A DNA stretch of 20,000 bases. Source: an uncultured virus (IMG/VR IMGVR_UViG_3300020576_008020) (Duplodnaviria; Heunggongvirae; Uroviricota; Caudoviricetes). Shown piece by piece: positions 1,865-16,874 of the stretch. A program made the translations under genes and the position numbers. Below the pieces are notes generated by a model, which was given only the letters and a program-made list of their open reading frames with translations, was not told the DNA's origin and made no database searches. Where the stretch lies: IMG/VR virus record IMGVR_UViG_3300020576_008020, one strand, 5' to 3'. Positions within the stretch are counted from its first letter, which is position 1, and the number at the start of each line of letters is the position of its first letter.

Positions 1865-2244
1865 TTTACTTCGAAATGGTTAGAAAAATCATCCTCAGTT
1901 GCGGAATACAATAGTCGCTTGGTGTCAATAATGGTATCTGCCGGTAAGCCGCATGAAAACAGGCATTGTTTCCAGAATTCACCGGTTGAACCATTATTAG
2001 CTACAATAGCTTCCAACTTTATTATTTCTTCGTCATCTAGCGTAACGCCATGGCAATTTACAGGCCCATCCCACCATTCAATAAATACATGAGGTATAAT
2101 TGTGTCGGTACCAAAGGATTTAATTTCAATGTACCCATGGCCATGAGTATATGTGCCGGTAATAATATTTCCCCCATCAATATGACGGCATATAATGTTG
2201 TCCCAAGAGTCGGGCTGCCTGTCGCTTGCTTTTATCCAGCTCAT
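1855..2244 (-). CDS. Hypothetical phage protein (129 aa; DUF551-like N-terminus MSWIKASDRQP)
   Basis: ORF with an ATGA overlap with the upstream gene. Confidence 0.7.
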   Translation of the reverse strand: MSWIKASDRQPDSWDNIICRHIDGGNIITGTYTHGHGYIEIKSFGTDTIIPHVFIEWWDGPVNCHGVTLDDEEIIKLEAIVANNGSTGEFWKQCLFSCGLPADTIIDTKRLLYSATEDDFSNHFEVKWL

Positions 2245-2441
2245 GTCGTTTGCTTAAGGGATTGCAGGTAGCTTGTGAGGTCATTTATTGCTGTGTGTGG
2301 AATAAGCATTTCGGAAAGTACGTGACTGCCAACTACAGCCTGGATGCGAATATCCCGGTCCTCATCTTTTTTAGCAATAATATCGCATGCGCTGCATGAT
2401 ATGCGTATGTCTTCGTTTTCAATTGTTTTGTTTTTTGCCAT
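2241..2441 (-). CDS. Hypothetical protein (66 aa, MAKNKTIENEDIR...)
   Basis: In-frame ATG at 2441 avoids overlap with 2461..2877; A-rich leader. Confidence 0.6.
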   Translation of the reverse strand: MAKNKTIENEDIRISCSACDIIAKKDEDRDIRIQAVVGSHVLSEMLIPHTAINDLTSYLQSLKQTT

Positions 2442-2460
2442 TGGTATCAGTTTTTTTGTT

Positions 2461-2877
2461 TTAATGTTTTGTGGGTTTTTTAGGAATATGATAGTCAAAC
2501 CGCCAGAGCGGGTAGCCATTGTTTCTACAATATTCCATAATCAAAATCAGTTTTAATTCCGGCTCGTCATTATATTCCTGCAAAAAATTTTCTATGTCTG
2601 CCGGATTTTTTGTGTTCCATGAACCTGGATTGCCATATTTTTGTGAAAGGCTATCATACTTTTTGCAGTCCCATTCGCGCAGCCTATCGCTATAGGCCGT
2701 TCCTGTTACTTCTTCATTTTTACCACCACGCCACACAACATACCCATCATAGCTGTATGGGTGTGTGTCTTTTGTTCTTTTAACCGGATTGTCGTACTCA
2801 TCTACATAGTGCAAATTCAAAACATGTCCATCTTGGGTAATGCGCAGCATTTTTTTATTTTGCCTAAATGTATTCAT
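2461..2877 (-). CDS. Hypothetical phage protein (138 aa)
   Basis: ORF in a packed minus-strand run; ATGA overlap with 2874..3065. Confidence 0.75.
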   Translation of the reverse strand: MNTFRQNKKMLRITQDGHVLNLHYVDEYDNPVKRTKDTHPYSYDGYVVWRGGKNEEVTGTAYSDRLREWDCKKYDSLSQKYGNPGSWNTKNPADIENFLQEYNDEPELKLILIMEYCRNNGYPLWRFDYHIPKKPTKH

Positions 2878-3065
2878 AGATTCAAAAATATCATTGTTAT
2901 TGAAAAAGCCGCCATGTAAACTGCTATAGCAGCAATACTTTTAATACCTACAGATGCAAGTATTGTAGGACCAGTAACCCGCCATCCGGTTATTTCATCA
3001 TGATACTGCATTGCCCATCCGACTATGAAAAAAAGCACTACCGATAAGGATAAAAGATAAATCAT
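2874..3065 (-). CDS. Small membrane protein (63 aa)
   Basis: Two hydrophobic segments; first gene after a sigma54 motif. Confidence 0.6.
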   Translation of the reverse strand: MIYLLSLSVVLFFIVGWAMQYHDEITGWRVTGPTILASVGIKSIAAIAVYMAAFSITMIFLNL

Positions 3066-3076
3066 TACCTATCAGT

Positions 3077-3093
3077 AGCAATTCTCGTGCCAA
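3077..3093 (-). promoter_or_regulatory. Sigma54 -24/-12 promoter
   Basis: Minus strand TTGGCACGAGAATTGCT = TGGCAC-N5-TTGC at the head of the leftward gene run. Confidence 0.75.
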
Positions 3094-3142
3094 AAAACCA
3101 AATTAAATATATTATAAACTGTTTGTTTTTGAAAAGAATAAT

Positions 3143-3150
3143 TATCTTTG
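3143..3150 (+). promoter_or_regulatory. Bacteroidota primary-sigma -7 box upstream of tnpB
   Basis: TATCTTTG (TAnnTTTG) with TTTG at 3122-3125; GTG start at 3158. Confidence 0.55.
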
Positions 3151-3157
3151 AAAATAA

Positions 3158-3549
3158 GTGCTAAGAGCCTACAAATACCGATTGAACTTAAACAATGAAC
3201 AGAAAACGTTCATAAATAAGTCATTTGGATGTGGCAGGGTAGTGTATAATTATTGTTTGCAGCGGCGCATTGAACTATATAAAGATGGTAAGCAGAAAAT
3301 AAGTGCTTTTGACCTGTGTAAGGAAATAGTGCAGCTTAAAAAGACTGAAGGCTATTATTGGTTATCTGAAGTAGACCACCAATCATTGTGCTGTTCGGTT
3401 ATGAATATGGACAACGCCTACAAGCATTTTTTTAACCGTGGTTTCGGTTTCCCAAAGTTCAAGTGTAAGTATTTCAGGCAGTCTTGCAAATTTACTCAAG
3501 GCATAAAAATAGATTTCTCGGCCAATAAAGTACGTTTTCCTAAAATAGG
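3158..3549 (+). pseudogene. tnpB: TnpB (IS200/IS605 family), 5' part, interrupted by the IS1-family element
   Basis: MLRAYKYRL...FGCGRVVYN...GFPKFK is the typical TnpB N-terminus; the frame is cut after FPKIG at the TSD. Confidence 0.92.
3542..3549 (+). repeat. Target site duplication, left copy (AAAATAGG)
   Basis: Identical to 8494-8501; abuts the left IR. Confidence 0.92.
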
Positions 3550-3590
3550 GGTAGTGCGTCCTTTTGAATGTTAATGTTTTTTAACAAAAA
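3550..3590 (+). repeat. Left terminal inverted repeat
   Basis: GGTAGTGCGTCCTTTTGAATGTTAATGTTTTTTAACAAAAA; 39/41 match to the reverse complement of 8453-8493, first 25 nt identical. Confidence 0.93.
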
Positions 3591-3620
3591 ACGGTATTGA
3601 GTTTTTGGTAACTTTGTGGT

Positions 3621-3762
3621 ATGGTAAAGAAGAACCCTCCACGTCCCAGAGATATGAACCAGCTCGCAAAGCGCATTTGTCGATATTTCCACAGGGCAAT
3701 ATACGGAGAAAGAGCCTATTACAACACCTAAGCCTACAAAAAAGAGAAAGCCCAAATCTTAG
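3621..3762 (+). pseudogene. Small basic protein of the RPRDxNQLAKxIVDIxTG type, with a +1 frameshift
   Basis: MVKKNPPRPRDMNQLAKRI; deleting one T at about 3676-3678 continues VDISTGQYTEKEPITTPKPTKKRKPKS*. TAACTTTG box at 3609-3616. Confidence 0.6.
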
Positions 3763-3847
3763 CCTTACAAGGCTTGTTTCAAGTCTGCTTTACGTATTGC
3801 ATATAAATATCCATTTACATTGCGTACCTTTATGCAAACAAATTCTC

Positions 3848-4084
3848 ATGGATAATTCAACTAAGATTCTTATTGGTCTTTTAGGCTTAGGTACAATCTA
3901 TTTGCTGTATGAAAATATGCAGTTTAAAAAATCCAATTTAAATAAGAAAGTTAGCTCTACATCCACTCAAACATCCTTTCCGCCACATCATAATGCGTAT
4001 CCTGTTCCTGTGGCTGGTCAAAAACCCGCCCCCACACCAGAAAGTGTAATGCGTAGAGCAGCAAAAAATCAGATGCCTAAATAA
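3848..4084 (+). CDS. Small membrane-anchored protein (78 aa, MDNSTKILIGLLGLG...)
   Basis: In-frame ATG within track ORF 3605..4084; N-terminal hydrophobic helix and Pro-rich tail. Confidence 0.55.
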   Translation: MDNSTKILIGLLGLGTIYLLYENMQFKKSNLNKKVSSTSTQTSFPPHHNAYPVPVAGQKPAPTPESVMRRAAKNQMPK

Positions 4085-4086
4085 TG

Positions 4087-6039
4087 TTATTTAACCACAG
4101 CAAGCCGTTCACTTTTAATTAGACTACCAGCTAATATAATGCTGACTATATAATGTCCACTCGGCAAATCCTGAGTACTAAGACTTATCCTATGTTCTCC
4201 TTCTGGTATGTTGTCATTATGCAATCGCTCACTATACTTTCCATCAACACTTCTAATTTCGATAGTACAAATACCTTCGTAGTCGGTATTAAATTCAATG
4301 GTGAAATTATTTGAGGCGGGATTAGGATATAGTTTTGTATTTACTGCCTCGTTGACATTTATGGTATTTAATGCAAAGAAGTTACCTTTTGCTATTTCGC
4401 CTATCCATGTGCCACCAGTATTATCAGCTTTTCCATAGCAGCCAGAAGCCCAAACAATTGGGGTTAATGAATTTTGTTTTCTGCATAAACCTGTATAATC
4501 CCCCCATCTTCCCATGTTGTGTGGTATTGCTTGGTAGTCCCATACAAAACTGCTGCCTGATTTTATTAATAGAGCGGGTGAGTAATTATTGCTAGCATCA
4601 GAACTATATGCGACATAGTATGGGTATGTTGTTGATAAGCTAACATTAGAACACATAATTACATTTTCATCAGCACCATTTAATCCATAAGAGGCAATAT
4701 TGGAATGACAAAAATCCCCTGATGTGGTTCCAAATAGCGACCAGCTTGATGGCGGCACAGATGCGCTCGAGGAACTCCAGATAAGCTTGGCTTTCATTGC
4801 ATAATTGGCAGAAGCCGAAGCGGAGCTAATAGAAGTAAACGTGAAATAAACACTCCATATTGATGTGGTAGGATTTCTTATAACAAACCCACCAGTTACT
4901 CTGCAATCGCCAACATCCAATTGGTTTGTACTTCCTAGTTGAAAGGCATCATAGCCTATTTCATAGTGAGGAGAAGCAACATCAATACCAGCAAAAGCAT
5001 CTGTTGGTTCATACCATGTCCAGAATTGTACAGAGTTACCAATTTGTGATTTTGTGCTGACAAAAGCCATTGTAGTTGAATATAATCCTGCTTGCCCATA
5101 ACTTAATGGATAAATAGTAAACCCCTGGTTACCTAAATCATCCAATGGATTTGACCTTTGTAAAGCTGTCCATCCAGTTGTAGAGCCACTTAATATTCCA
5201 GCCTTAGAGAATCTGAATATAATAGGATATTGAAAAGAATTACTCGAATTATACGCATTGATACTAACATAAAGAGAGCTTGCATTAATACCAATACTTG
5301 GATAATCCATCCAGATGCCCGCTGCTGGTGGTGTATATGTCCAATAACTCCATGCGCCAAGAGGATTTGACGTAAGTGGATATGCAATAATTAACTTTGA
5401 TGTTGACGGTGTTGACCCATCCAAAACAACAAGAAAAAACCTATCTAAAACGTCATCGTAAATTACTTTAGCATCGTAAAGAACACCTGAAAAACTACTG
5501 CTACCTCCCAAAAATGCGTTTATTGAATGCGAGGCCAGCGGAGTTCCAAGAGTATCTTTTATTGTAATGTTAGAGTTTGTTGTGCTGATTATTATTCCTG
5601 AATTTGATATTGCTATGCTATTATCATTCGGGAAGGTTGTGGCGTCATCTGAACTATTAAAGTGATGATTTAGATAAATCGGTGGTGCCGCGGTTGTTTT
5701 ATGCCCGTTATTGTTTTCATCTATGATAAATCCTGCTGGAGATTCCTTTTTAATTTGCAGCGTACTATCGCCACCGTCTTTTCTAAATTTTCTCTTTGAT
5801 TTTTTAAACTCCCTCAATGCCGTGTCGCCACCTTTATTAAATTCTTGCTTATTATGAATTTTAAAACGTAAATCTTTTACAGTATCAGCCTTTATGGGTC
5901 TATTATGCGGTGTTCCAGAAATTGGTGTAGCCTTTTTTACATTTTTATTATTAGGAGTATAATTTGGCGCACATCTTTGTCCAAATAAAATGAAGGTCTG
6001 TAATACTAAGACCAACAATAAAATCAATTTGCCTTTCAT
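4087..6039 (-). CDS. Secreted protein with T9SS type A C-terminal sorting domain (650 aa)
   Basis: Signal peptide MKGKLILLLVLVLQTFILFG; C-terminal KLYPNPASNNFTIEF...DGK...LPSGHYIV...KSERLAVVK; Ser/Thr/aromatic-rich core with DYPSIG and RWGDY. Confidence 0.85.
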   Translation of the reverse strand: MKGKLILLLVLVLQTFILFGQRCAPNYTPNNKNVKKATPISGTPHNRPIKADTVKDLRFKIHNKQEFNKGGDTALREFKKSKRKFRKDGGDSTLQIKKESPAGFIIDENNNGHKTTAAPPIYLNHHFNSSDDATTFPNDNSIAISNSGIIISTTNSNITIKDTLGTPLASHSINAFLGGSSSFSGVLYDAKVIYDDVLDRFFLVVLDGSTPSTSKLIIAYPLTSNPLGAWSYWTYTPPAAGIWMDYPSIGINASSLYVSINAYNSSNSFQYPIIFRFSKAGILSGSTTGWTALQRSNPLDDLGNQGFTIYPLSYGQAGLYSTTMAFVSTKSQIGNSVQFWTWYEPTDAFAGIDVASPHYEIGYDAFQLGSTNQLDVGDCRVTGGFVIRNPTTSIWSVYFTFTSISSASASANYAMKAKLIWSSSSASVPPSSWSLFGTTSGDFCHSNIASYGLNGADENVIMCSNVSLSTTYPYYVAYSSDASNNYSPALLIKSGSSFVWDYQAIPHNMGRWGDYTGLCRKQNSLTPIVWASGCYGKADNTGGTWIGEIAKGNFFALNTINVNEAVNTKLYPNPASNNFTIEFNTDYEGICTIEIRSVDGKYSERLHNDNIPEGEHRISLSTQDLPSGHYIVSIILAGSLIKSERLAVVK

Positions 6040-6073
6040 TTTGGTTTGTTTTTATGTATGAGTAAATAAAATA

Positions 6074-6202
6074 GCGTAACCGAAATTCTTCCGCTACTCA
6101 AGGCTCTGGAAGCCCCATCTCACAAAAGACACGATTACGCCATGCGGCGTACCGTAGTCATTTTGTTGCGAGATGTTCAAATTTTCCAGATTTAGAGTTA
6201 GC
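6074..6202 (-). ncRNA. Putative structured 5' leader (long imperfect hairpin) upstream of the T9SS gene
   Basis: Nested pairings 6093-6099/6195-6202, 6105-6111/6184-6190, 6116-6130/6157-6175, TACGCC 6136-6141/GGCGTA 6146-6151. Confidence 0.55.
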
Positions 6203-6366
6203 AACTAAATGTTACAATACAAACTTGTATATGTCCTGTCTTTTATCTATTCATTCATTCTATTTTCGTCAGCAATATATTTATCTTCAAGGATAAACAA
6301 CTTTAGCAAAAGTAATTATATTTACGATATGTAGTGTGTGGTAAATATAATAAATATTGGCACAGG

Positions 6367-7086
6367 ATGTCTGACGATAAGTTGCTTGACGATTATAAGA
6401 TATTGGGAGAGTACGGTGTTAAAATGACACTGTTCCATAAGTTCCAATACTACCAGAACATAATTGATACCTGTATTGATAATAATAAGCCTATTCCTGC
6501 TACTATTGCCAAGCTCTACTTTACGCTATTTCAGAACTTATGGCATGTAAAAAAGAAACGAACAAAAAAGATAACTGATGCGCTTATAAAAAGGTTTTCC
6601 AAAGAGGTCATCAGGTACTTTGAATCAGATAAAGGCAAAGGGTACAATTTTTCTGGCGAAAGGCTGGTTCACGGCAATACCTACAATGTTTTGACAAGGA
6701 CGGTCGAAGATTCTACTCACTATGAAAGCTATTCATTAGCCCAAATGATTAAAAGCTGTGTTAATAGCTACGTCTTGCTGGTGCAAGTGTTAGATTTTAA
6801 TAAGGATGAGGTAATCAGGTATCTATACGATGACATAGAGGATTACTGCGCAAAAAATCTTACAGAGCAACAGAAAGTACAATTCCCTGTTTATAAAAGG
6901 AGAGTAGTTGCCGCATATATTACCATGTGCGTAACCGAGAATTATTTTGAGGGTAAAACACGGGTCGGTAAAAAAGACGGTCAACCAGTCATTATAGAAC
7001 TCTCCACCGATTTCAGGAACGAGGATTTATTCCAGTCAACCCGGACAGCGTTAGACCCGCCAAAGCTTAAAAAAAGAAAGGCTTGA
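6367..7086 (+). CDS. Hypothetical protein (about 239 aa)
   Basis: Long ORF; ATG 6367 preferred over GTG 6334; no motif recognised. Confidence 0.75.
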   Translation: MSDDKLLDDYKILGEYGVKMTLFHKFQYYQNIIDTCIDNNKPIPATIAKLYFTLFQNLWHVKKKRTKKITDALIKRFSKEVIRYFESDKGKGYNFSGERLVHGNTYNVLTRTVEDSTHYESYSLAQMIKSCVNSYVLLVQVLDFNKDEVIRYLYDDIEDYCAKNLTEQQKVQFPVYKRRVVAAYITMCVTENYFEGKTRVGKKDGQPVIIELSTDFRNEDLFQSTRTALDPPKLKKRKA

Positions 7087-7101
7087 GTTTCCCCAAACCT
7101 A

Positions 7102-7116
7102 CTGCTTTGACACCAG
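7102..7116 (+). repeat. 15-bp direct repeat CTGCTTTGACACCAG
   Basis: Exact copy at 7328-7342, the anticodon arm of the tRNA-like gene. Confidence 0.85.
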
Positions 7117-7140
7117 TCATGTAAAAATATAAAACCTGCG

Positions 7141-7255
7141 CATTACTGCAAATTTTTTCTTTTGGCACATTACTGTGGAAATTTCATTTTTTCACAGTAG
7201 TGTGGATTTTTTCGTTTTCCGCACTACTGTGAATTCTGCCAAAAGAAACACTACC
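7141..7255. repeat. Array of CA(T/C)TACTG motifs with 27-bp periodicity, middle copy inverted
   Basis: Direct copies at 7141, 7168, 7222 and partial 7249; inverted CACAGTAGTG at 7193-7202; 7191-7206/7218-7233 form a 15/16 inverted repeat. Confidence 0.75.
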
Positions 7256-7299
7256 CATAGTTTTCATTTGCAATATACCGTGCCATACTTTCGCTATAT

Positions 7300-7372
7300 G
7301 GGAGATTGTTGGTAGTGGTCACCATGTCTGCTTTGACACCAGACGAGATGGGTTCAATTCCCTTATCTTCCA
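7300..7372 (+). tRNA. Atypical tRNA-like gene (anticodon ambiguous; 9-nt loop CTTTGACAC)
   Basis: Acceptor GGGAGAT/ATCTTCC plus A; D arm TGGT-AGTGGTC-ACCA; anticodon stem GTCTG/CAGAC; T arm GGG-TTCAATT-CCC. Confidence 0.6.
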
Positions 7373-7424
7373 TCATTTTATTTCTCTAAAAAAATCTTTG
7401 TAAACACCAGTAAAATCAACACTT

Positions 7425-7440
7425 TGGCATCTTATTTGCA
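7425..7440 (+). promoter_or_regulatory. Sigma54-type promoter upstream of the IS1 transposase
   Basis: TGGCATCTTATTTGCA (GG-N10-GC), about 67 nt before ATG 7507. Confidence 0.55.
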
Positions 7441-7506
7441 CTATGCTATACAGCATACGGATAATAGAGAGGAAGGGAATAATAGCACAGAAAAAGGACT
7501 CACAAA

Positions 7507-8403
7507 ATGAACAGGCTCAGTATAGAAGAAAGAGCAAAAATAATTAGGATATTAGTAGAAGGAACAAGCCTTAGAGCTTGCACCCGTATTTCCGGGCTAT
7601 CCTACAACGCAGTGAAAAAACTGCTGATTGATGTTGGTAAAGCCTGCCAGCAATTCCACAACGATAATGTAGTGAATGTTGCCGCTAAGAAAGTACAATG
7701 TGACGAGATTTGGAGCTACGTTTACTGTAAAGACCGCAATGTGGACTTTTGCACAAAGAAAGACGAACAGCACGTAGGGGATGCGTGGACATGGGTAGGA
7801 ATAGACGCTGATACCAAGCTGGTAATTTCATGGCTGGTAGGTAACAGGGATGCAGATTGCGCACATGAATTCATGCTCGATGTAGCAAGTAGGCTTAGGA
7901 GCAGGGTACAACTATCCACCGATGGCTTTAAGCCTTATTTGCGGGCGGTAGAAAACGCCTTTGAAGATGAGATTGACTACGCCATGCTCATTAAGACGTA
8001 TGGGCAGCCAGAGGGTGGCAGCAACGAAAGAAGGTATAGCCCTGCCGTTTGTACAGGAATAACAAAAAGGTGGGTGTCTGGCGACCCTGTTGAAGAAGAT
8101 ATATCCACCAGCTATATAGAACGTCAGAACCTCACTATGCGTATGCATATGCGCAGGTTCACAAGGTTAACCAACGCATTTTCCAAGAAAATAGAGAACC
8201 ATTGCCATGCTATTGCCATCCACTATGTCTATTACAACTTCATCAGGAGGCATAATACACTAAAAGTTACCCCCGCAATGGCAGCAGGGCTAACTTCCAG
8301 ACCAATGACCATAGAGGACATGGTTCGCATGGCTTACGCTGATGAAATAGCAAAAGAAGAAAAGATTAAAGCCCGATACAAACGTCCAGCCCCGGCAGTC
8401 TAA
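7507..8403 (+). CDS. IS1-family DDE transposase (298 aa, single ORF)
   Basis: N-terminal HTH (EGTSLRACTRISGLSYNAV); catalytic motifs QCDEIWSYV, STDGFKPY, TSYIERQNLTMR, followed by RRFTRLTNAFSKK and TPAMAAG. Confidence 0.92.
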   Translation: MNRLSIEERAKIIRILVEGTSLRACTRISGLSYNAVKKLLIDVGKACQQFHNDNVVNVAAKKVQCDEIWSYVYCKDRNVDFCTKKDEQHVGDAWTWVGIDADTKLVISWLVGNRDADCAHEFMLDVASRLRSRVQLSTDGFKPYLRAVENAFEDEIDYAMLIKTYGQPEGGSNERRYSPAVCTGITKRWVSGDPVEEDISTSYIERQNLTMRMHMRRFTRLTNAFSKKIENHCHAIAIHYVYYNFIRRHNTLKVTPAMAAGLTSRPMTIEDMVRMAYADEIAKEEKIKARYKRPAPAV

Positions 8404-8408
8404 GACAC

Positions 8409-8438
8409 AAAACCCGCAGTTGATAGCTGCGGGTTTTT
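8409..8438 (+). terminator. Intrinsic terminator (probably bidirectional)
   Basis: AAAACCCGCAG / CTGCGGGTTTTT just after the transposase stop. Confidence 0.8.
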
Positions 8439-8452
8439 CTCTAACTTTATGC

Positions 8453-8493
8453 TTTTTGTTAAAATACGTTAACATTCAAAAGGACGCACTACC
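8453..8493 (-). repeat. Right terminal inverted repeat
   Basis: Ends ...TTAACATTCAAAAGGACGCACTACC; reverse complement of 3550-3590 with 2 mismatches. Confidence 0.93.
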
Positions 8494-8501
8494 AAAATAG
8501 G
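8494..8501 (+). repeat. Target site duplication, right copy (AAAATAGG)
   Basis: Identical to 3542-3549. Confidence 0.92.
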
Positions 8502-9342
8502 TTGGGTGCGAGCTTATATTGACCGGGAGTTTACAGGAACGATAAAAACCACTACAGTAACAAAAAATGCCAGCGGAAAATACTATGTAAGCATTTTAGT
8601 CGAAAACGGCATGGAGCTACCTGCAAAGCCAGCAGTTCACCCACAAACAACGATTGGCATAGACGTAGGGGTAAAGAATATTGTAACTTTTAGCGACGGT
8701 ACCACCATTGCCAACCCGAGAAACTTCTTTAAGTACGAAGAGCGGCTGGCATTACTACAGCAACGACTTTCTCGCCGGGACAAAAACCGTTATCCGGATG
8801 AAAAAGATAAAAGCAGTAGGCGCCGGCGCAAAGCGCAAATGGCCGTTGCCAAAATGCACCAGAAAATACAAAATACCCGGAGTAATTTACTGCAAAAAAT
8901 TACCTCAAAAATTATTAGCGAGAACCAAACTATAATCATTGAGGATTTGAATATAAAAGGCATGACGGCTACCTGTAAACCAAAACCTAACGAAGACAAC
9001 ACAGGCTTTCTTCCAAATGGGCAAGCCGCTAAAAGCGGCCTGAACAAATCTATTTTGGATGTGGGTTTGGGTAAGTTCTTTGATATGTTGGAATATAAAG
9101 CTGAGTGGCACGGAAAAAACCTCATTAAAATAGGCAGATTTGAGCCATCAAGCAAGCTTTGTAGTAATTGCAAGCACAAAAACGCAGACCTGAAGTTAAA
9201 AGACCGGGTCTGGACTTGTGTTAACTGCGGGACAGAGCATGACAGGGATGTAAATGCCGCGGTCAACATTAAGGAAATTGGATTGAAACAATATTATTTA
9301 CAAACAAAGTCAGGGCAGGGCATGCCCGTTGCGGACGTATGA
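8502..9342 (+). pseudogene. tnpB: TnpB 3' part (RuvC and zinc finger)
   Basis: IGIDVG, IIIEDL, CSNC...CVNC, HDRDVNAAVNI; joins the 5' part in frame as FPKIG|WVRAYIDREF. Confidence 0.92.
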
Positions 9343-9412
9343 GTTATAGATGTAAATCTGGGATTTCTACGTCAAGTCATCATGCTAGCTTTATGCTACC
9401 AGTAAGTATGAC
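9313..9412 (+). ncRNA. Putative TnpB omegaRNA scaffold / IS right end (boundaries approximate)
   Basis: Overlaps the tnpB 3' end; stems GGGCA/TGCCC (9313-9327), GACGTA/TACGTC (9334-9373), TAGC/GCTA (9386-9398), GTCAT/ATGAC (9376-9412). Confidence 0.45.
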
Positions 9413-9639
9413 AAGCCAAGGCTGCACCACAGAGCGCAAACCTTTGACTTCTAACTTTTTTGAGAGGGGGAATATTTAGAGCGGACCAAAGATAAGCTAT
9501 CTATTATACATAACCAAAATGACATTAACTTATTTTTATAAAAGTCACAAGCATTTAAGCATACGGTTACCTTTGACAAAACTAAGTTTCCGGACCAGAC
9601 AGAATAACCATATCTGATTTTATTTCATAATTTCGCATC

Positions 9640-9966
9640 ATGGTGGAGTATAACGGGGTGCGGCTATATAAATTTTATTTTTCCGGCATATCCATTCCGG
9701 TCACCATAGAGTCGCTGACGCTGGATGAGGCTAGGCGTACTATTATTAGAAATTGGCGAAAGCTCCACCCGCCATATCAGAAAAGCTACATTATTAACGA
9801 GACCGTGACTGTGCCACTGGAAGGGGTATCTACTAAGCTGGTAAACGGCATAGAATATACCTGGGTAGGGTACAAAAAGTCTAAAGATGGTTGGCAGGAT
9901 ACCGAAAGTCTTTCGAAAGAAGCTCGGGCTTTTGAGCAAATCAGCAAAATTCATAGATTAGACTAA
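9640..9966 (+). CDS. Hypothetical protein (108 aa)
   Basis: ORF with a TACCTTTG box at 9568-9575 upstream. Confidence 0.7.
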   Translation: MVEYNGVRLYKFYFSGISIPVTIESLTLDEARRTIIRNWRKLHPPYQKSYIINETVTVPLEGVSTKLVNGIEYTWVGYKKSKDGWQDTESLSKEARAFEQISKIHRLD

Positions 9967-10015
9967 AAATTTTATTATCTTTGAAGCACAACTACAGTAA
10001 CAAACATCATTATTC

Positions 10016-10267
10016 ATGCAGGTAAACTCACAGCCCAAGCCACAAACCCGGTTAGCTAAAATATTGCAGGAAAAAGGATTGAATCAAAAACAATTCAGTG
10101 CTCTTATCAAAAAAAAGACCGGCTGCGAAATAACCAACTGCAACATCAGCAAGCATGTAAATGGGCAAAAGGCCTTTATGTCTACGCAAACCCTCATGAT
10201 ATTTGCAGTCACCCTTGATGTTACTGCGGATTCCCTTCTGGATTGGCCGGCGCGTTACAAAAGATAG
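10016..10267 (+). CDS. XRE/Cro-like HTH regulator (83 aa)
   Basis: RLAKILQEKGLNQKQFS...ISKHVNG...TLMIFAVTLDVTADSLL; TATCTTTG box at 9976-9983. Confidence 0.8.
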   Translation: MQVNSQPKPQTRLAKILQEKGLNQKQFSALIKKKTGCEITNCNISKHVNGQKAFMSTQTLMIFAVTLDVTADSLLDWPARYKR

Positions 10268-10286
10268 GGTGTAGCTAACGCTAATT

Positions 10287-10302
10287 CGGCACGATTTTTG
10301 CT
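10287..10302 (+). promoter_or_regulatory. Sigma54 -24/-12 promoter
   Basis: CGGCACGATTTTTGCT (GG-N10-GC); -12 C is 32 nt before ATG 10333. Confidence 0.72.
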
Positions 10303-10332
10303 GCATATATACTTTAATGTCTTTTTCAGTTT

Positions 10333-10707
10333 ATGCAGAATTTTATTTCGGACTTTGAAGAAGCCTGCGCAAAGCTTGGTCGCAGCACTGTTCTTCCCGA
10401 CGTTTCCCAGTTTAATCTCCGCCTACGGGCTTATATTATTGCACTTCATAAGCTGAGTATACTTTTGGAGGTAAATAATGGTGGTGTAAAAATGAAAACG
10501 GCGGACATTAAACAGTGGAAGTTTTATCCACGGTTTACGATTATTCCCGATGCAAGTTGTTTGTTTGGTTTTCAATTGGCGTGTAACGACTTTGAATCCG
10601 ACCGCTCGTCTTCGCTACTTGGTACAAGCTTGGCCTGCGCAAGCGCGGAACTTGCAATATTTATGGGGAGAAACTGCACTGAATTATACGAACCGTTGAT
10701 GGCATAA
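10333..10707 (+). CDS. Bacteroidota phage-type hypothetical protein (124 aa)
   Basis: FEEACAKLG...KLSIL...WKFYPRF...AELAIFMG...ELY pattern that I recall from Bacteroidota phage proteins; not searched. Confidence 0.7.
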   Translation: MQNFISDFEEACAKLGRSTVLPDVSQFNLRLRAYIIALHKLSILLEVNNGGVKMKTADIKQWKFYPRFTIIPDASCLFGFQLACNDFESDRSSSLLGTSLACASAELAIFMGRNCTELYEPLMA

Positions 10708-10721
10708 ATACTACTTACGCT

Positions 10722-11237
10722 ATGAAAAGCCCCGATTTTGAAATAATACCGGTTGAAAACTACCAAAAGTATATTGACAAGTGCATAAGGCTAGCCTTGC
10801 AGTCTAAGTGCAGCCGGCGCAGGTGCGGGTCGGTAGTAGTAAATGTTGATTTTAAGCCAGCCCAGGTAATTGGTGAGGGCTGGAACAGTATGCCCTGCAA
10901 TGTCGATGGGGTGTGTTTTAAGGATAGCCTACCCGTTAATTTCAAGAGCGATAAGACCTGCTGTATACATGCTGAGCAGCGTGCCATTATGCAGGCTTTG
11001 CGTTATCCGGTAATGATAATAAATTCCCTGCTGTTCTTTGTCAGCATAGACGAAAATGGCAAGCCTGTTAATAGCGGCGAGCCATACTGTACTATTTGCA
11101 GCAAGATGGCGCTGGATGCCGGTGTGGGTCGGTTTATATTGTATCATGAGGATGGCCTGCGCTCATATGACACCAGGTATTACAACGAACTTTCTTTTAA
11201 ACATCAATATCAACATCAACATACTCCACATGGATAA
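10722..11237 (+). CDS. dCMP deaminase-like zinc-dependent deaminase
   Basis: SKCSRRRCGSVVV, GEGWN, HAEQRAI, EPYCTICSK. Confidence 0.88.
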   Translation: MKSPDFEIIPVENYQKYIDKCIRLALQSKCSRRRCGSVVVNVDFKPAQVIGEGWNSMPCNVDGVCFKDSLPVNFKSDKTCCIHAEQRAIMQALRYPVMIINSLLFFVSIDENGKPVNSGEPYCTICSKMALDAGVGRFILYHEDGLRSYDTRYYNELSFKHQYQHQHTPHG

Positions 11238-11907
11238 GTCATCGTCATTTTGTATTGTTATTCCGACCTACAACAGGTTTGATTTGCTGTTGCCTGCATT
11301 GCTGTATTATGTATTAAATTTTCCTGAAACAAAGATTGTTATTTACGACAATGGCTGCCAGCGCATAAAAGAAAGGCTGGAAGGCATTAGAAACGTGCGT
11401 GGAAATCGCAGGCAATACGAAAAGCTTTCGCAGGTAATTGTGCTGGGTGGCAATGGTAAAAACATAGGCGTATCTGCTGCCTGGAATATTTTGCTTCAGG
11501 AAGCTTTTGAAACGCATGCATGTACGCATGCGCTGGTGCTTAATGATGATGTGTATCTGGACCGTAATGAAATTTCGGTGAACTCTCTTATTGGCAACAT
11601 TGAGTTTCAAAACAATTTGCTGGTATGTCTTCCAACGTTTGATTGGAGTGTGTTTATTATGCCTAAGTACGTATATAATAAGGTCGGGCCGTTTGATGAA
11701 GGGATGTTCCTGTACTATAGCGATAATGACATGGCAGTGCGCCTGAAAAAAATAGGTATTGATGTTATACCGGTACCCTTTCTAAACCCCGCTGTTTTTT
11801 CGCGCAGCTCTACCATATTGCAAGCGCCGGAGTTAAATGAGCACATAGAAAGAGATAAGCAACATTATATCAGCAAGTGGGGCGGGACTCCGGGTAATGA
11901 GTTGTAA
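11230..11907 (+). CDS. Glycosyltransferase family 2 (about 225 aa)
   Basis: IVIPTYNR, IYDNG, NIGVSAAWN, VLNDD, VGPFDE, YYSDND; likely start ATG 11230, overlapping the deaminase 3' end. Confidence 0.85.
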   Translation: MDKSSSFCIVIPTYNRFDLLLPALLYYVLNFPETKIVIYDNGCQRIKERLEGIRNVRGNRRQYEKLSQVIVLGGNGKNIGVSAAWNILLQEAFETHACTHALVLNDDVYLDRNEISVNSLIGNIEFQNNLLVCLPTFDWSVFIMPKYVYNKVGPFDEGMFLYYSDNDMAVRLKKIGIDVIPVPFLNPAVFSRSSTILQAPELNEHIERDKQHYISKWGGTPGNEL

Positions 11908-11939
11908 TATAAAAAACGCTCAATAAAATATGACCAGTA

Positions 11940-12743
11940 ATGGCAGAAAAAACAAACATAAGCTGGACTGATGCGACCTACAACGTCGCTAGGGGCTGCA
12001 CGCCTGTTAGTGAGGGATGTGCTCGGTGCTACATGATGCGCGATGGCGACAGGTATAAGTACGATGGCAGGGTTGTGCAGAGGACCAAGACTGTATTTAC
12101 AATGCCGCTGAAATACAGACAAACCAAATCTGCTGTGTGGTCCGGTAGGCCATTGATATTTACCTCATCTCTTACTGATTTTTTTCATAAAGACATTGAT
12201 TCTTTCCGGCATGAGGCCTGGGACATAATCCGTAAATGCCCGCATCTTATATTTCAGATACTTACTAAGCAGCCAGAGCGAATAAAGGACCATCTTCCTC
12301 CGGACTGGGGAAAAGGCTGGGACAATGTATGGCTGGGGGTATCCGTCGAAAACCAGCGGCGCGCAGATGAGCGTATTCCTATTTTGCTGGATATACCGGC
12401 CAAGGAGCGTTTTTTATCGTGTGAGCCCCTGCTTGAAAGCATAGATATTACTATGTACTTGTATACCAGGTATATTATGGGCGGCCCGCGCCATGAAAGC
12501 AATCAGGTTTCCTGGGTAATTGTAGGCGGCGAAAGCGGCAATGATACCGGGAGATGGAAGTACCGGCCCTGTGATGATGTCTGGATAGCGCAAATTGTAA
12601 ATCAATGCAAATCAGCCAAGGTGCCTGTTTTTGTAAAACAAATGGGGACGCACATAGCCAAAAAGTATGGTATGACACGACACGGCGCTGATATAAATGA
12701 GTTTCATCCATTTTTGCAGGTACGGGAGTTTCCGGAGCCATAA
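11940..12743 (+). CDS. DUF5131 (phage Gp37/Gp68) family protein
   Basis: TNISWTDATYN, GCTPVSEGCARCY (CX6CX2C), FQILTK, NVWLGVSVENQ, FLSCEPLL, WVIVGGESG, FVKQMG. Confidence 0.9.
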   Translation: MAEKTNISWTDATYNVARGCTPVSEGCARCYMMRDGDRYKYDGRVVQRTKTVFTMPLKYRQTKSAVWSGRPLIFTSSLTDFFHKDIDSFRHEAWDIIRKCPHLIFQILTKQPERIKDHLPPDWGKGWDNVWLGVSVENQRRADERIPILLDIPAKERFLSCEPLLESIDITMYLYTRYIMGGPRHESNQVSWVIVGGESGNDTGRWKYRPCDDVWIAQIVNQCKSAKVPVFVKQMGTHIAKKYGMTRHGADINEFHPFLQVREFPEP

Positions 12744-12754
12744 AAAACATATTT

Positions 12755-13030
12755 ATGCATTTTTTTGATGAAAGGCTGGGGAAAATTAAAAAAGGTGATT
12801 GGCTGAAGGGAGCAGATGGACAGTCTGGCTTGGTCTATTCGTATGATAATATTGAATATAGAATTGTTTTCCATAACAAGCATAATTACCCCATAAGTAC
12901 TTATGAGCTTGCCAATTGGCTAAAAAACAATTCCAATGCCGAAAAGTGCAAAGCTGCATTTAATTATGAGCCTAGTGCTGGTGCGAGTAGTTTACTTTCA
13001 AGGTTCAAAGTAAACTTAGGGATTTCATAG
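12755..13030 (+). CDS. Hypothetical protein (91 aa)
   Basis: ORF in co-directional run. Confidence 0.65.
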   Translation: MHFFDERLGKIKKGDWLKGADGQSGLVYSYDNIEYRIVFHNKHNYPISTYELANWLKNNSNAEKCKAAFNYEPSAGASSLLSRFKVNLGIS

Positions 13031-13114
13031 TTTACTTTTGGTCGTTAAAATATTTTTTCAAATACTACCTACCTAACCGATTATTATTATATATTTGTTA
13101 TACAATCATAAAAC

Positions 13115-13369
13115 ATGCCAAAACTTACTGTAAAGCAATGGTTTGAAACCATAAGTGATGATTATATTCGTCATACCGCGCTAAAAAATCTGGAAGATTA
13201 TTTGAAGGTAAACAAAGATGCCAATATTGAGGTAGATAGCCTTCATGATGCCATTATGAATGGTTTCCCGCATTCCTTTACAAAGGATGGCGTGGAGTAC
13301 TGGGCAGACATTGAAGAAAAAGCGTTTAATGGAACGCTTGCTGTAATGGCCAGCCCGGTTTCTGCGTAA
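13115..13369 (+). CDS. Hypothetical protein (84 aa)
   Basis: ORF with TATATTTG box at 13090-13097 and A-rich leader. Confidence 0.7.
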   Translation: MPKLTVKQWFETISDDYIRHTALKNLEDYLKVNKDANIEVDSLHDAIMNGFPHSFTKDGVEYWADIEEKAFNGTLAVMASPVSA

Positions 13370-13423
13370 TTGTTGTTTTTTAAAAAGAAAAAAACTAACT
13401 TTTTTAAAATAAATTGTTTTTTT

Positions 13424-13585
13424 ATGGAAAATCTGATAAATGATATTAAGGGCAAGTCGCCAACCTTTTGGCTGGGTGTCATGGGTGTAGTCATTATAGG
13501 CTATCTGGCATATGTTGCCTATTATAATCCCGGAAGCCATAATCCATACCACAGTATCCCCGAAGATAAATTACCTCAATTCTAA
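13424..13585 (+). CDS. Small single-TM protein (53 aa, MENLINDIKGK...)
   Basis: In-frame ATG in track ORF 13370..13585; one hydrophobic segment. Confidence 0.55.
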   Translation: MENLINDIKGKSPTFWLGVMGVVIIGYLAYVAYYNPGSHNPYHSIPEDKLPQF

Positions 13586-13609
13586 TGCCGTTTTATTCTG
13601 TTCCAGGTC

Positions 13610-14245
13610 ATGCACATGCTTAATACCCTTTTTGACAAAATATACATTATAAATCTTGAGCGCCGACCAGAGCGCTGGGCACTGGCAGAGCAGGAATTGA
13701 AACGCTGGGGTATAGCCGCATGCCGGGTTGCTGCCGTTGACGGCAATACGCTTAAGGATGCCGGGTACCGGCTGGCGCTTGGGGCCGTAGGTCTGATAAA
13801 AACCAACATTAATATACTCCAGCATGCAAAAGCAAATGGGTATAAGCGGATATTGATTCTTGAAGACGATGTGGTATTTAGCCAGGAGATAAATAAAATA
13901 GGCGAGTATCTTGCCGCGGTTCCTGCGGATTATGACATGCTGTACTTCAGCGGCAATCATAATGACCATGTGGTAGGTGTTATGCCTCCACATGTCATCA
14001 ATGATAAAGTGCTGCGCGTGCATGAGACTTATAGTACGCACTGCGTGGCTATGCAGGAGCACATGTTTGATGTAATTATTAATGCTATCCAGCCCTGCCA
14101 TAAGCCGCTGGATGTATACTATACTGAATTGCAAAAGAAGCATAACGTATATTGCCTGAAAGGCCCTGTTCCTATAGCTACGCAGCGTGTGGGCTTCAGT
14201 GATATACTTGCTGAGCATGCAGATTATCAATGGCTAATAAAATAG
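13610..14245 (+). CDS. Glycosyltransferase family 25
   Basis: KIYIINLERRPER, AVDG, ILILEDD, YDMLYF, PLDVYY. Confidence 0.85.
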   Translation: MHMLNTLFDKIYIINLERRPERWALAEQELKRWGIAACRVAAVDGNTLKDAGYRLALGAVGLIKTNINILQHAKANGYKRILILEDDVVFSQEINKIGEYLAAVPADYDMLYFSGNHNDHVVGVMPPHVINDKVLRVHETYSTHCVAMQEHMFDVIINAIQPCHKPLDVYYTELQKKHNVYCLKGPVPIATQRVGFSDILAEHADYQWLIK

Positions 14246-14257
14246 TAAATAAATTTT

Positions 14258-14536
14258 ATGCAGACAATAAGAAAAGTTGTTAAGATTGGTGGCCGGGAAA
14301 TACCCCGGACTATGATACGTGGCGGCCAAAGAGAATGGCAAAATTTTCTAAACGCCTACGATATGACTTCTAATGGTATTGCGCGAGGTGAAAATTTTAG
14401 TCTTTATTCTGTGCTGCATTATTATATAAGGTACCGGCCTGTCAAGTACCGTAACAATCACAGCAGGAAGATAAGCAGGTCAGAGCGCATCGCGTATCGA
14501 ATGGTGTACACTAATGGAAAAACAAACTGGAGGTAA
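14258..14536 (+). CDS. Hypothetical basic protein (92 aa)
   Basis: ORF in co-directional run. Confidence 0.6.
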   Translation: MQTIRKVVKIGGREIPRTMIRGGQREWQNFLNAYDMTSNGIARGENFSLYSVLHYYIRYRPVKYRNNHSRKISRSERIAYRMVYTNGKTNWR

Positions 14537-14538
14537 TT

Positions 14539-14754
14539 ATGGAGCTTTCTTTTTCTTTTCTATATGTTGTATTTTTATTGTCTGTATTTGTACCATATGC
14601 TGTACTGTATGTTATCGCATATAAAATACTTCGTCTTGATAAGAAAATAAATGAACGTCATTTGGCGTTAATACTATTGTGTATAGCCATTTTTCTATCT
14701 CCTCTTCTTTTTTCTCCCATTTTTGACGTGGCCAGCTATTTTATTTTGTGCTAG
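14539..14754 (+). CDS. Small 2-TM membrane protein (71 aa)
   Basis: Hydrophobic ORF 2 nt after the previous stop. Confidence 0.6.
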   Translation: MELSFSFLYVVFLLSVFVPYAVLYVIAYKILRLDKKINERHLALILLCIAIFLSPLLFSPIFDVASYFILC

Positions 14755-14806
14755 TATGCAAATTGATTTTTTGTGTGTAGACATTTGCATGAGCAATGTT
14801 AAAGTT

Positions 14807-14822
14807 CGGCACGATTATTGCT
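14807..14822 (+). promoter_or_regulatory. Sigma54 -24/-12 promoter
   Basis: TTCGGCACGATTATTGCTGCA (14805-14825) is 20/21 identical to 10285-10305; -12 C is again 32 nt before an ATG (14853). Confidence 0.72.
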
Positions 14823-14852
14823 GCAATAATAATATTCTTTATTGCATTTTTA

Positions 14853-15110
14853 ATGGATATTTTATATACACCTCCGTCTACGTCTGCCCATAATGCTAAA
14901 GCTCAATTGCCGCCAGAAAATGCTGATGGCGATTTGAATCTTGCCAACATGGAGATACGGACAATAAAAAAAGCATTTAGGATATTTCCTAAAGACCCCG
15001 TAAAGGAAATAGCAAAAAAATTATGCATTTCCGAGCGCACTCTTAACAGGAAAATAAAGCAGTATAATCTGGGAGGTCCAAGGCAATTAAGGTATCCGGA
15101 TGTAAAATAA
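14853..15110 (+). CDS. Stand-alone Fis/NtrC-type (HTH_8) DNA-binding protein (85 aa)
   Basis: LNLANMEIRTIKKAF...KEIAKKLCISERTLNRKIKQYNL resembles the C-terminal HTH of sigma54 enhancer-binding proteins; no AAA+ domain. Confidence 0.75.
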   Translation: MDILYTPPSTSAHNAKAQLPPENADGDLNLANMEIRTIKKAFRIFPKDPVKEIAKKLCISERTLNRKIKQYNLGGPRQLRYPDVK

Positions 15111-15117
15111 AAAACGC

Positions 15118-15681
15118 ATGAATTACAGGGACGCATTTTTTGCAATGCAGGATGGCCAAAAGGTAAAGTTACCTGAATGGATAGGTTACTGGTGGATGCC
15201 GGATATAAATTTTTCCGGAGACCGGGAAAAATGTATTCGCGTTCTTACTAAGAACGGCGACATTCTTGATACGCCCTGGATTGATAAATATCGTAGCCGC
15301 GATGATTGGGAGATTACTGACGGCGCTCTTGGCTTTGAGTTTGCTATACTGGCGCTGAAAAATGGCAAAAAAGTGACTTGTCGTGCTCTGGGCTTTAATT
15401 GGCTCCAGTTAAGCAAATTTGAGGTGAAGAAGGGAGATGAAGAGGCTGTTATTGTTAGTGAAATAATTCGATGTGCGCCGGAAGGTTTTGTGAGTGATGC
15501 AACTGATGATGCTCAAAAATTAGTATCAAATGTTGTATATCAGCCATGGGAGATGTCTTCCAAGTGGTTGCTTTTTACGGACTATTCATTGTGTCAATTT
15601 TCTTTTATTACTGATAAGCCATTGGTGTATACTCCCGTGCAGGTATTATGTAATCCCAGTTTTAAAATAATATTGGAATAA
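15118..15681 (+). CDS. DUF2829 / Tad2-like protein with two tandem units
   Basis: MNYRDAFFAMQDGQKVKLPEW...DDWEI, then GFEFAILALKNGKKV...YQPWEMS...FTDY. Confidence 0.65.
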   Translation: MNYRDAFFAMQDGQKVKLPEWIGYWWMPDINFSGDREKCIRVLTKNGDILDTPWIDKYRSRDDWEITDGALGFEFAILALKNGKKVTCRALGFNWLQLSKFEVKKGDEEAVIVSEIIRCAPEGFVSDATDDAQKLVSNVVYQPWEMSSKWLLFTDYSLCQFSFITDKPLVYTPVQVLCNPSFKIILE

Positions 15682-15693
15682 GCTAACCGGTGT

Positions 15694-15960
15694 ATGGAAA
15701 AAGACATTAAAAACATTGAGCTAAAAATTTACAAGAAACTGTACGAAATAAATAGCGCAGTGTTGCGGGCTATTGTTCATAGAGTTGACGATAGGCTTGC
15801 ATACAGAGATAAGGTTGATGTAGATAAGAAAGAAAAAAGAGATATTGAGCTGATGGAGGCTATTGCCAATAAGGATAAGTGGGATTTTCATGGAATTTGC
15901 AGCAACGATAAAATTAAGTTGATGGAGTTTTTGGAGTATTTGCTTGATGATAAGGCGTAA
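15694..15960 (+). CDS. Hypothetical protein (88 aa)
   Basis: ORF in co-directional run. Confidence 0.65.
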   Translation: MEKDIKNIELKIYKKLYEINSAVLRAIVHRVDDRLAYRDKVDVDKKEKRDIELMEAIANKDKWDFHGICSNDKIKLMEFLEYLLDDKA

Positions 15961-15977
15961 GTATAAATGGTCTGATA

Positions 15978-16370: not shown

Positions 16371-16381
16371 AGCAACAATAC

Positions 16382-16681: not shown

Positions 16682-16684
16682 CAT

Positions 16685-16861
16685 ATGCTAAGCAAAAAGT
16701 TTTTGAACATTGCGGGTTTTATTGCCAAGAATATTGGTGTTTGTGTGATTTTGTATTTATTGGACTTGCTATTTAATACTTTTACAGTAGTTATTATAAT
16801 ATTTTTTGTAGTTGGTGTTTTTTCAATATTGCAAGAAGTTTTAGAAAAAAAAGAGCAGTAA
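16685..16861 (+). CDS. Small 2-TM membrane protein (58 aa; not in ORF track)
   Basis: MLSKKFLNIAGFIAKNIGVCVILYLLDLLFNTFTVVIIIFFVVGVFSILQEVLEKKEQ*; fills the gap between neighbours. Confidence 0.55.
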   Translation: MLSKKFLNIAGFIAKNIGVCVILYLLDLLFNTFTVVIIIFFVVGVFSILQEVLEKKEQ

Positions 16862-16874
16862 TATATTTTATAAG

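Follow-up and report, generated by a model that had tools for sequence, protein, structure and literature searches.

A 4.9-kb IS1-like element, very probably a transporter insertion sequence, within a tnpB gene of a phage-like genome

The DNA analysed here is a 20,000-nt stretch (hereafter, the window) from an uncultured virus of the Caudoviricetes (IMG/VR record IMGVR_UViG_3300020576_008020), and it contains a 4,944-bp element at positions 3550–8493. The terminal inverted repeats (IRs) of this unit are 41 nt long and 39/41 (95%) complementary, with the left arm (IRL) at 3550–3590 on the plus strand and the right arm (IRR) at 8453–8493 on the minus strand. Both arms carry the tip GGTAGTG, and IRL shows four mismatches to the 19-nt consensus of the related elements, GGTAGTGTCTCAGTTTGAA. 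An exact 8-bp target-site duplication (TSD), AAAATAGG, is present at 3542–3549 and again at 8494–8501. With up to three mismatches allowed, the 25-nt IR tip was found within the window only at the two ends (expected 0.00 from 200 shuffles). From left to right the element holds a small basic gene, a 78-amino acid (aa) open reading frame (ORF), a gene for a 650-aa protein with a type IX secretion system (T9SS) sorting domain, a 239-aa orphan ORF, roughly 420 nt of non-coding DNA that includes a repeat array and a tRNA-like gene, and a single transposase gene. A sequence-only reading made earlier had described 39/41 IRs, an exact 8-bp TSD and one IS1-type transposase around about 3.9 kb of cargo, and both the coordinates and the Pfam search confirm that description. 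An internal IR bounding the transposase alone was not found in the window at up to three mismatches; the best internal look-alike matches at 14 of 19 positions and lies in the orientation opposite to the one needed for such an arrangement.

The element interrupts a gene encoding TnpB of the IS605 OrfB type. The N-terminal part of the target gene lies at 3158–3549 (plus strand; HTH_OrfB_IS605, 63.4 bits) and the C-terminal part at 8502–9342 (plus strand; OrfB_IS605 and Cas12f1-like_TNB). When the flanks are joined without the element and without one copy of the TSD, 410 codons with no internal stop are obtained. The insertion is therefore precise, as judged from the restored 410-aa frame and the TnpB domains in both halves. 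The target being a TnpB gene (IS605 OrfB/Cas12f-like) in a phage-like genome, one mobile element has here knocked out the RNA-guided nuclease gene of another.

Contigs from Logan were used to examine the junctions. One run (X22), which is probably the source sample, contains 0.99 of the window's words, and two of its contigs, with a depth of about 44, cover 2000–6063 and 6034–10500. Both junctions of the element are thus bridged, as the earlier reading had required of the reads, and the element is not an assembly chimera. A second run (X2), a wastewater metagenome from another study, holds a 30,372-nt contig in which position 3541 is joined directly to 8494. The joint skips 4,952 bases, corresponding to the 4,944 bp of the element plus 8, and eight letters at the joint are compatible with either side. 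The contig has no differences from the window over 2000–3541 and 45 over 8494–10500, and with none in the left 1.5 kb and 45 in the right 2 kb the empty site must come from a related phage, not from the same one. The insertion is polymorphic among related phages. The skipped 4,952 bases and the restored TnpB frame bear out the proposal of a unit-transposon form of IS1 that has moved recently.

A copy of the right half of the element was seen in another context. In run X1 (activated sludge, a third study) a 4,872-nt contig matches 5977–8498 with 24 differences and 8 gaps; the match stops at 8498, 5 bases beyond IRR, and the other 1,340 nt of the contig are unlike the window. The right half is 99% identical, the 239-aa ORF included, and over the T9SS gene the contig is strongly diverged, with 35 differences in 5129–5289 and 568 letters replacing 571. 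The divergence and the unmatched 1,340 nt indicate the same right half at another site with a different cargo version. Joints with short sides of 20–24 nt, from 3586 to 6034 in X1 and from 3586 to 6200 in X2, are only hints of relatives with other cargo. Stretches left uncovered in X1, X2 and X24 were given no weight as evidence. The 27-mer predicted for the empty site had no match in IMG/VR viral contigs, and the whole element returned no match from INPHARED phages by blastn.

The transposase gene (7507–8403, plus strand) is a single ORF of 298 aa, encoding an IS1-type DDE transposase with an N-terminal helix-turn-helix (HTH). The protein matches Pfam PF03400 (DDE_Tnp_IS1) with 34.9 bits against a cut-off of 24.1, and the best NCBIfam model is NF033558 (IS1), with IS6 next at 23.9 bits. 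Among 157 aligned relatives, 52 positions show at least 97% conservation, and the window protein retains every one of them. D66 (in QCDEIW), D139 (STDG) and E205 (ERQN) are conserved in 156–157 of these 157 relatives and likely constitute the catalytic triad.

A search with the transposase returned 139 stretches in species-representative genomes and 260 in JGI metagenomes, from which the best 80 of each were kept; the resulting 160 loci and the window make up a family set of 161 sequences, and six further loci came from IMG/VR. The closest transposase identity was 72% in the species-representative genomes, 70% in the JGI metagenomes and 57% among the six IMG/VR loci. According to the record titles, the hosts include Bacteroidota, Pseudomonadota, Nitrospirota, Chloroflexota, Acidobacteriota, Planctomycetota and others. 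Element ends were sought with the 19-nt consensus, at up to four substitutions, upstream of the transposase and with its reverse complement downstream. Both ends were found in 99 of the 161 sequences, the right end only in 34, the left end only in 16 and neither in 12. The 99 complete elements, a few of which are the same insertion in two samples (for example L093/L094 and L097/L100), have lengths of 2,053–6,911 bp (median 3,092 bp), and none is near the 1.1 kb of a transposase-only insertion sequence (IS). An exact 8-bp TSD flanks 82 of them and a 6-bp TSD one.

The complete elements share a layout of left end, gene for a small basic three-helix protein (98/99), variable cargo, transposase and right end; in some, cargo is also accommodated between the transposase gene and IRR, over up to 2.4 kb. 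Comparison of the ORFs showed the cargo to be unrelated from element to element. The conserved core and swappable cargo slot that had been postulated from the window alone are thus seen in 99 relatives that have ends, small gene and transposase in common, and homologues compared between their IRs carry cargo as a rule. The element belongs to a very widespread, cross-phylum and little-described group of cargo-carrying IS1-like elements, and members of this group are prone to mis-annotation as 'IS1 transposase plus hypothetical genes'.

The cargo of the relatives was scanned against Pfam using 128 ORFs with a length of 118 aa or more, taken from 58 elements. The most frequent finding was HTH_3 with Peptidase_M78 of the ImmA/IrrE type (8 ORFs), followed by SocA/Panacea antitoxin domains (SocA_Panacea), P63C, ClpP/SDH-type proteases and N6/N4 DNA methylases (N6_N4; three of them fused to Mrr_cat), with 4 ORFs each. 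DUF3467 was present in 3 ORFs, each beside an HTH protein, and AAA_21 and STAND-type ATPases in 2 ORFs each. PemK, Abi_2, Gp49, NYN, RhuM and a Holliday-junction-resolvase-like nuclease were each found in a single ORF, and 3 ORFs were nested transposases of other families. Judged by these domains, the relatives' cargo is mostly of toxin-antitoxin, restriction-modification or other defence type. Such elements may offer a cheap route by which small defence and surface-protein modules are moved between bacterial chromosomes and phages.

The sequence-only reading had counted the small basic gene at the left end as frameshifted cargo, and on both points the evidence is otherwise. An all-versus-all comparison of the ORFs of the first 59 elements identified only one gene common to nearly all of them, encoding a basic protein of 63–100 aa, and a profile built from 55 of these small proteins matches 98 of the 99 complete elements, in 96 cases on the transposase strand. 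It is therefore a core gene of the family. Its start lies within 70 nt of IRL in about half of the elements and further in for the rest (15–1,268 nt). In the window the gene is a short form at 3621–3762 (plus strand), with 46 codons once an extra T at 3676 is discounted; of the conserved helices it retains just the N-terminal one, the product amounting to the N-terminal third to half of the family protein. Profile positions 7–25 match one frame of the record and 24–45 the next, with the shift at a TTT run; the X22 contig has TT where the record has TTT (depth 44.4 of 44.4), which gives an intact 46-codon gene. The frameshift thus probably stems from a homopolymer error of the record. L081, which is the closest complete relative (70% transposase identity; 4,900 bp), shares this short form, with 50 aa that match profile positions 4–39 only, and the short form is therefore a trait of the lineage and not decay of the window copy.

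The AlphaFold model of the small protein, calculated from a 55-sequence alignment, consists of three helices with a mean predicted local distance difference test (pLDDT) score of 84. The protein has no Pfam, NCBIfam or PADLOC family, no sequence relative in the PDB (the best E-value, 2.4, being a chance match) and no Foldseek match. Presumably this basic protein serves as a DNA-binding accessory factor or as a regulator of transposition.

Taken together, positions 3550–8493 very probably form one autonomous transporter IS, of IS1-like type, that moves as a unit with its passenger genes. From left to right it would comprise the small accessory gene, the passengers and the single-ORF transposase gene, the last equipped with a regulatory region of its own. 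The ends, the TSD, the empty site, the copy in another context, the intact catalytic residues and the architecture of the family, on which this reading draws, are all observed directly. The transposase would recognise the two outer IRs with their GGTAGTG tips, so that all of the intervening DNA is moved in one piece, and 8 bp of the target would be duplicated on insertion; the chemistry is presumably that of IS1-type DDE enzymes. The present copy has inserted into the tnpB of a second mobile element, and the phage genome concerned occurs in wastewater and sludge metagenomes. The empty site in an independent sample is direct evidence that one IS1-type transposase is able to bring unrelated genes, here about 4 kb of them, into the genome of a phage, and with the copy elsewhere the window adds an unusually clean proof of unit movement into a phage gene. 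The window itself is otherwise mostly ordinary: a well-formed transposon and no new class. It does represent a lineage whose accessory gene is shortened and which also has a sigma-54-like motif and a structured array.

The element resembles classical IS1 in several respects. Its transposase is of the IS1 DDE type; the IR tips of the IS1 family fit GGnnnTG according to the ISfinder rule, and the GGTAGTG tips at both ends of the window element, as well as the family consensus, conform to it. The TSD of IS1 is 8–9 bp, and the 8 bp of the window, like the exact 8 bp of the 82 relatives, falls in this range. In contrast to classical IS1, which has two overlapping ORFs (insA and insB) expressed by −1 frameshifting within about 0.77 kb, the window has one 298-aa ORF in 4,944 bp, and its relatives extend over 2–7 kb, the shortest being 2,053 bp. 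The N-terminus of the transposase bears an HTH and not a zinc finger. The group further differs from IS1 in its separate, conserved small three-helix gene at the far end, with the cargo accommodated between this gene and the transposase. Departing from the two-ORF frameshift arrangement, from the size of classical IS1 and from the strict IS1 model of NCBI, the element is, by its sequence, best placed as a distant single-ORF branch of the IS1 type. ISfinder lists single-ORF and longer, passenger-carrying IS1 subgroups of up to about 4.6 kb, for example ISMhu11; no mention of ISMhu11 was found in a literature search.

The contrast with classical IS1 that had been drawn from the sequence overstates the novelty of the element. 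Transporter ISs (tIS), that is, IS derivatives with passenger genes inside their IRs, are an established category (Siguier and colleagues; PMC9330008). The window element is like them in having one transposase, one IR pair and unrelated passengers that move as a unit, as the empty site shows. As published, the concept is generic, whereas the group of the window has a fixed small gene, defence and toxin-antitoxin cargo and a recurrent tRNA-like gene. In the literature searched, which included neither supplements nor ISfinder and TnCentral, no IS1-type group is described as having such a fixed small gene, cargo of defence or toxin-antitoxin type, or a tRNA-like gene. Like class II unit transposons of the Tn3 type, the element is a single unit bounded by terminal IRs, with its cargo as an integral part; it has, however, no Tn3-type transposase, resolvase or res site. 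Tn3-type elements generate a TSD of 5 bp, compared with the 8 bp seen here.

Several points weigh against the assignment to a transporter IS of IS1 type or limit how far it can be carried. The read-level evidence consists of Logan contigs, not raw reads. The exact 21-nt IR tip had no match in IMG/VR viral or JGI metagenome contigs, and an identical second copy of the element is not on record. One or both detectable ends are missing in 62 of the 161 sequences, many of which are short contigs, and 16 of the 99 complete elements have no exact TSD. The match of the transposase to DDE_Tnp_IS1 is limited to profile positions 83–122 of 131, and the score against the NF033558 IS1 equivalog, 61.8 bits, is below the cut-off of 100; membership of the IS1 family is therefore distant. 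The small gene of the window is without the conserved C-terminal two helices, of which there is no trace in any frame, and either this half is dispensable or supplied in trans, or the lineage of the window and L081 works differently. Lastly, an IR look-alike at 7237–7255 may reflect an origin of the present unit by fusion of two parts, or an additional binding site of the transposase.

This look-alike lies at the edge of a repeat array (7141–7255) within the non-coding DNA that separates the 239-aa ORF from the transposase gene (7087–7506). The array comprises five GTARTG motifs, the core of the IR tip, against a background of 0.6 per kb inside the 99 elements, and no other of the 99 has three or more within 150 nt, so that it is not a feature of the family. 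Two of its units form a terminator-like hairpin at 7166–7204 (16 pairs) followed by a T run, and units three and four form a 16-nt hairpin at 7191–7233. The segment 7087–7300 folds at −53.1 kcal/mol, compared with −30.8 ± 3.6 for shuffled sequences (z = −6.1). The 'regulatory array' of the sequence-only reading is thus a real array, but at least in part an ordinary terminator-type hairpin. In the simplest reading the cargo transcript would end here at a strong terminator or a structured insulator, the hairpin and T run presumably stopping cargo transcription ahead of the transposase region.

Clustering of five IR-tip-like motifs in this element alone among the 99 could instead suggest that the unit is a secondary fusion, in which a transposase-less cassette (from IRL at 3550 to a decayed right end at 7255) became joined to a partial element with the tRNA-like gene, the transposase and IRR, and which now moves by its outer ends like a one-off composite, without a cargo slot designed as such. 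The minus-strand 19-mer at 7237–7255 matches the IR at 14 of 19 positions with a perfect 7-nt tip, GGTAGTG, and a match of this quality turned up in 1 of 30 shuffles, a rate of 0.03 per shuffle. Set against this, 98 of the 99 elements have the order small gene, cargo, transposase, which needs no fusion, the whole 4,944 bp is missing from the empty site, and the look-alike overlaps a region of stable RNA or DNA hairpins that can otherwise explain its conservation. On balance a fusion origin is unlikely.

A candidate −24/−12-like motif of the sigma-54 type, TGGCAT-N5-TTGC, is located at 7425–7439 (plus strand), 82 nt before the transposase start. The pattern TGGCAY-N5-TTTGC/G at 82–98 nt upstream was found only in four mutually closest elements, namely the window, L001 (at about 2791), L081 (about 6915) and L083 (about 1222). 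Most relatives (94/156) have instead CTTGAC 35–45 nt before the transposase start codon, often within a palindrome, an arrangement that looks like a sigma-70 promoter with an operator.

The tRNA-like gene (7300–7372, plus strand) that had been noticed in the sequence is weak, its 32 bits for Rfam RF00005 lying narrowly above the gathering score of 29; it is missed by ARAGORN at default settings and called at a lowered threshold. The predicted RNA has a 7-bp acceptor stem with G3:U70 and A73, the alanine identity marks. Its T arm is good, its variable arm is short, and CCA is not encoded. Its anticodon arm is irregular: a C31–C39 mismatch opens the loop to nine bases, and the loop UUUGACA has C37 and, as read, the anticodon UGA. 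The minimum free energy is unremarkable (z = −0.66), and the RNA would be a poor decoder. An exact 15-nt copy of the anticodon arm (7328–7342) is found at 7102–7116 (plus strand), just after the 239-aa ORF, where about 0.014 such pairs are expected in 5.5 kb. Partial tRNA copies of the kind left by integrase-type att duplication were considered as a feature of the family and rejected, being seen in the window only and in none of nine other tRNA-like-bearing elements checked.

A covariance model was built from 14 tRNAs and tRNA-like sequences of these loci, and it scores the window copy at 50 bits, a value of little weight since this copy is among the 14. With this model, 16 of the 99 complete elements (15 distinct) proved to contain tRNA-like genes. 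In 11 complete elements (10 distinct, L097 being the same as L100) and 4 incomplete loci the gene is on the same strand as the transposase and within 350 nt upstream of its start, which by our estimate is far above chance, well under one being expected in 161 × 350 nt. Even so, a gene in this position characterises only a minority of the family, roughly one element in ten. The anticodons vary (GUA, GCU, ACU, UUA, UAA and UGA). Several of these genes have good cloverleaves and some encode CCA. Further peculiarities concern L006 (9658–9857), L023 (1583–1747), L034 (675–770) and L086 (6856–6926): some elements have two tRNA-like genes in tandem, and three have one in which ARAGORN reads the anticodon UUA, of the ochre-suppressor type, two of these with a long variable arm.

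Genes for tRNAs are also carried by phages and genomic islands, and the window copy is comparable as a tRNA-shaped gene on mobile DNA, here in an IS inside a phage; it differs from them in being a poor tRNA (32 bits) with a fixed place upstream of the transposase, not in a tRNA cluster. In 7 of the 99 elements (L020, L059, L066, L075, L106, L115 and L126) a normal host tRNA gene scoring 66–88 bits with the covariance model is situated 34–155 bp away, outside the IR. This proximity suggests one way in which tRNA genes could be picked up, and it may reflect a target preference near tRNA genes. In the present reading the tRNA-like gene would derive from a tRNA that was captured or has degenerated, and its RNA would be retained for structure or processing, not for decoding.

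The recurrent same-strand position close upstream of the transposase, well under one by the same chance estimate, and the relatives with good cloverleaves and encoded CCA would also be expected if the gene encoded a functional private tRNA for codons retained in the transposase gene, by which the element would control its own movement at the level of translation. Codon usage speaks against it. The UGA anticodon of the window fits TCA, which is used once in the 298 codons against a family mean of 3.4; L121 has the anticodon ACU and no AGT codon; and the codon of the conserved S178 is AGC in 122 of 157 genes, irrespective of any tRNA-like gene. A codon-matching role is thus unsupported in this data set. 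The mismatched anticodon stem, C37, the combination of an Ala-type acceptor with a Ser-type anticodon and the missing long variable arm further argue against a functional tRNA, as do the 32 bits in Rfam next to the 70–88 bits of host tRNAs at the same loci with our model, and about 85% of the complete elements are without a tRNA-like gene. A private tRNA is accordingly very unlikely.

Somewhat less doubtful, if still rather unlikely, is that the block between cargo and transposase, with the array, the tRNA-shaped RNA, the second copy of the anticodon arm and the sigma-54-type promoter, acts as a dedicated module of RNA-level control in this IS1-like lineage. The tRNA-shaped RNA would in that case be no decoder; it might serve in processing or insulation, with cleavage by RNase P or RNase Z, or act as a decoy or sensor for nucleases that target anticodon loops, a kind of toxin often encoded by the cargo of the family. 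If it were so, transposase expression would be tied to the state of the host tRNA pool or to an enhancer-binding activator, which would be a new host-sensing route for a DNA transposon. The functional meaning of the tRNA-like gene is the only part with real upside; as a recurrent gene it offers, like the small accessory protein that is fixed in the group, a testable handle on how movement is controlled.

That the 4.9-kb block is ordinary phage DNA between chance repeats, or an assembly artefact, would suit the phage-like character of the rest of the window and the lack of an identical second copy on record, but its probability is negligible and we regard it as already refuted by the 25-nt IR tip (0.00 expected), the empty-site and other-context contigs from other studies, the restored TnpB frame and the 99 relatives with the same ends.

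The cargo of the window comprises the three proteins that had been named from the sequence. The 78-aa ORF (3848–4084, plus strand) has an N-terminal hydrophobic helix, its membrane character being read from the sequence alone, and no match in PHROGs, NCBIfam or PADLOC. The 650-aa protein (4087–6039, minus strand) has the T9SS C-terminal sorting domain as its only family match (Pfam Por_Secre_tail, 35.9 bits; TIGR04183), and 20 homologues, none of them named. Its AlphaFold model (pLDDT 77; predicted template-modelling score 0.74) shows a signal-like N-terminus, then a beta-propeller core, then the T9SS tail. The best Foldseek matches of the model are propeller glycosidases, sialidases and galactose oxidase, which overlap it modestly, with E-values from 2e-7 and template-modelling scores of 0.25–0.39 by query. 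From the model we call it a putative secreted or surface propeller protein, and the T9SS protein and its homologues point to a Bacteroidota host. The 239-aa orphan ORF (6367–7086, plus strand) has one other homologue, with 79% identity, no Pfam, PHROG, NCBIfam or PADLOC family and no fold lead in the Atlas. Nothing defence-like was found in the window cargo in any library.

The T9SS gene is preceded by a conserved leader or promoter region of about 230 nt (6040–6270, minus strand), with 74% identity over 250 nt to positions 4917–5163 of L081, where the counterpart sits before a different cargo ORF. Pieces of the leader (5977–6063 and 6200–6231) are found in other contexts in runs X1, X2 and X24. 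Conserved blocks are seen in the region, together with a GC hairpin (TACGCC..GGCGTA) and, directly ahead of the start codon, a hairpin followed by a T run; a search of 5950–6400 against Rfam gave no match at E-values up to 1. These features suggest that the leader may be a portable promoter, an attenuator or a cis-regulatory RNA.

Within the inner part of the IRs a small palindrome, GTTAA-N6-TTAAC, is conserved at 3574–3589 and 8454–8469 of the window and at 3828–3843 of L081, and could be a second protein-binding site within the ends.

Outside the element the window is phage-like, with PHROG matches that include a dCMP deaminase, glycosyltransferases and a DNA helicase, the last with at most 44% identity to helicases in 233 phage records. 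Positions 9640–19998 resemble a phage region of replication and nucleotide metabolism, with a dCMP deaminase-like gene, two glycosyltransferase-like genes, a phrog_62 helicase and many small ORFs.

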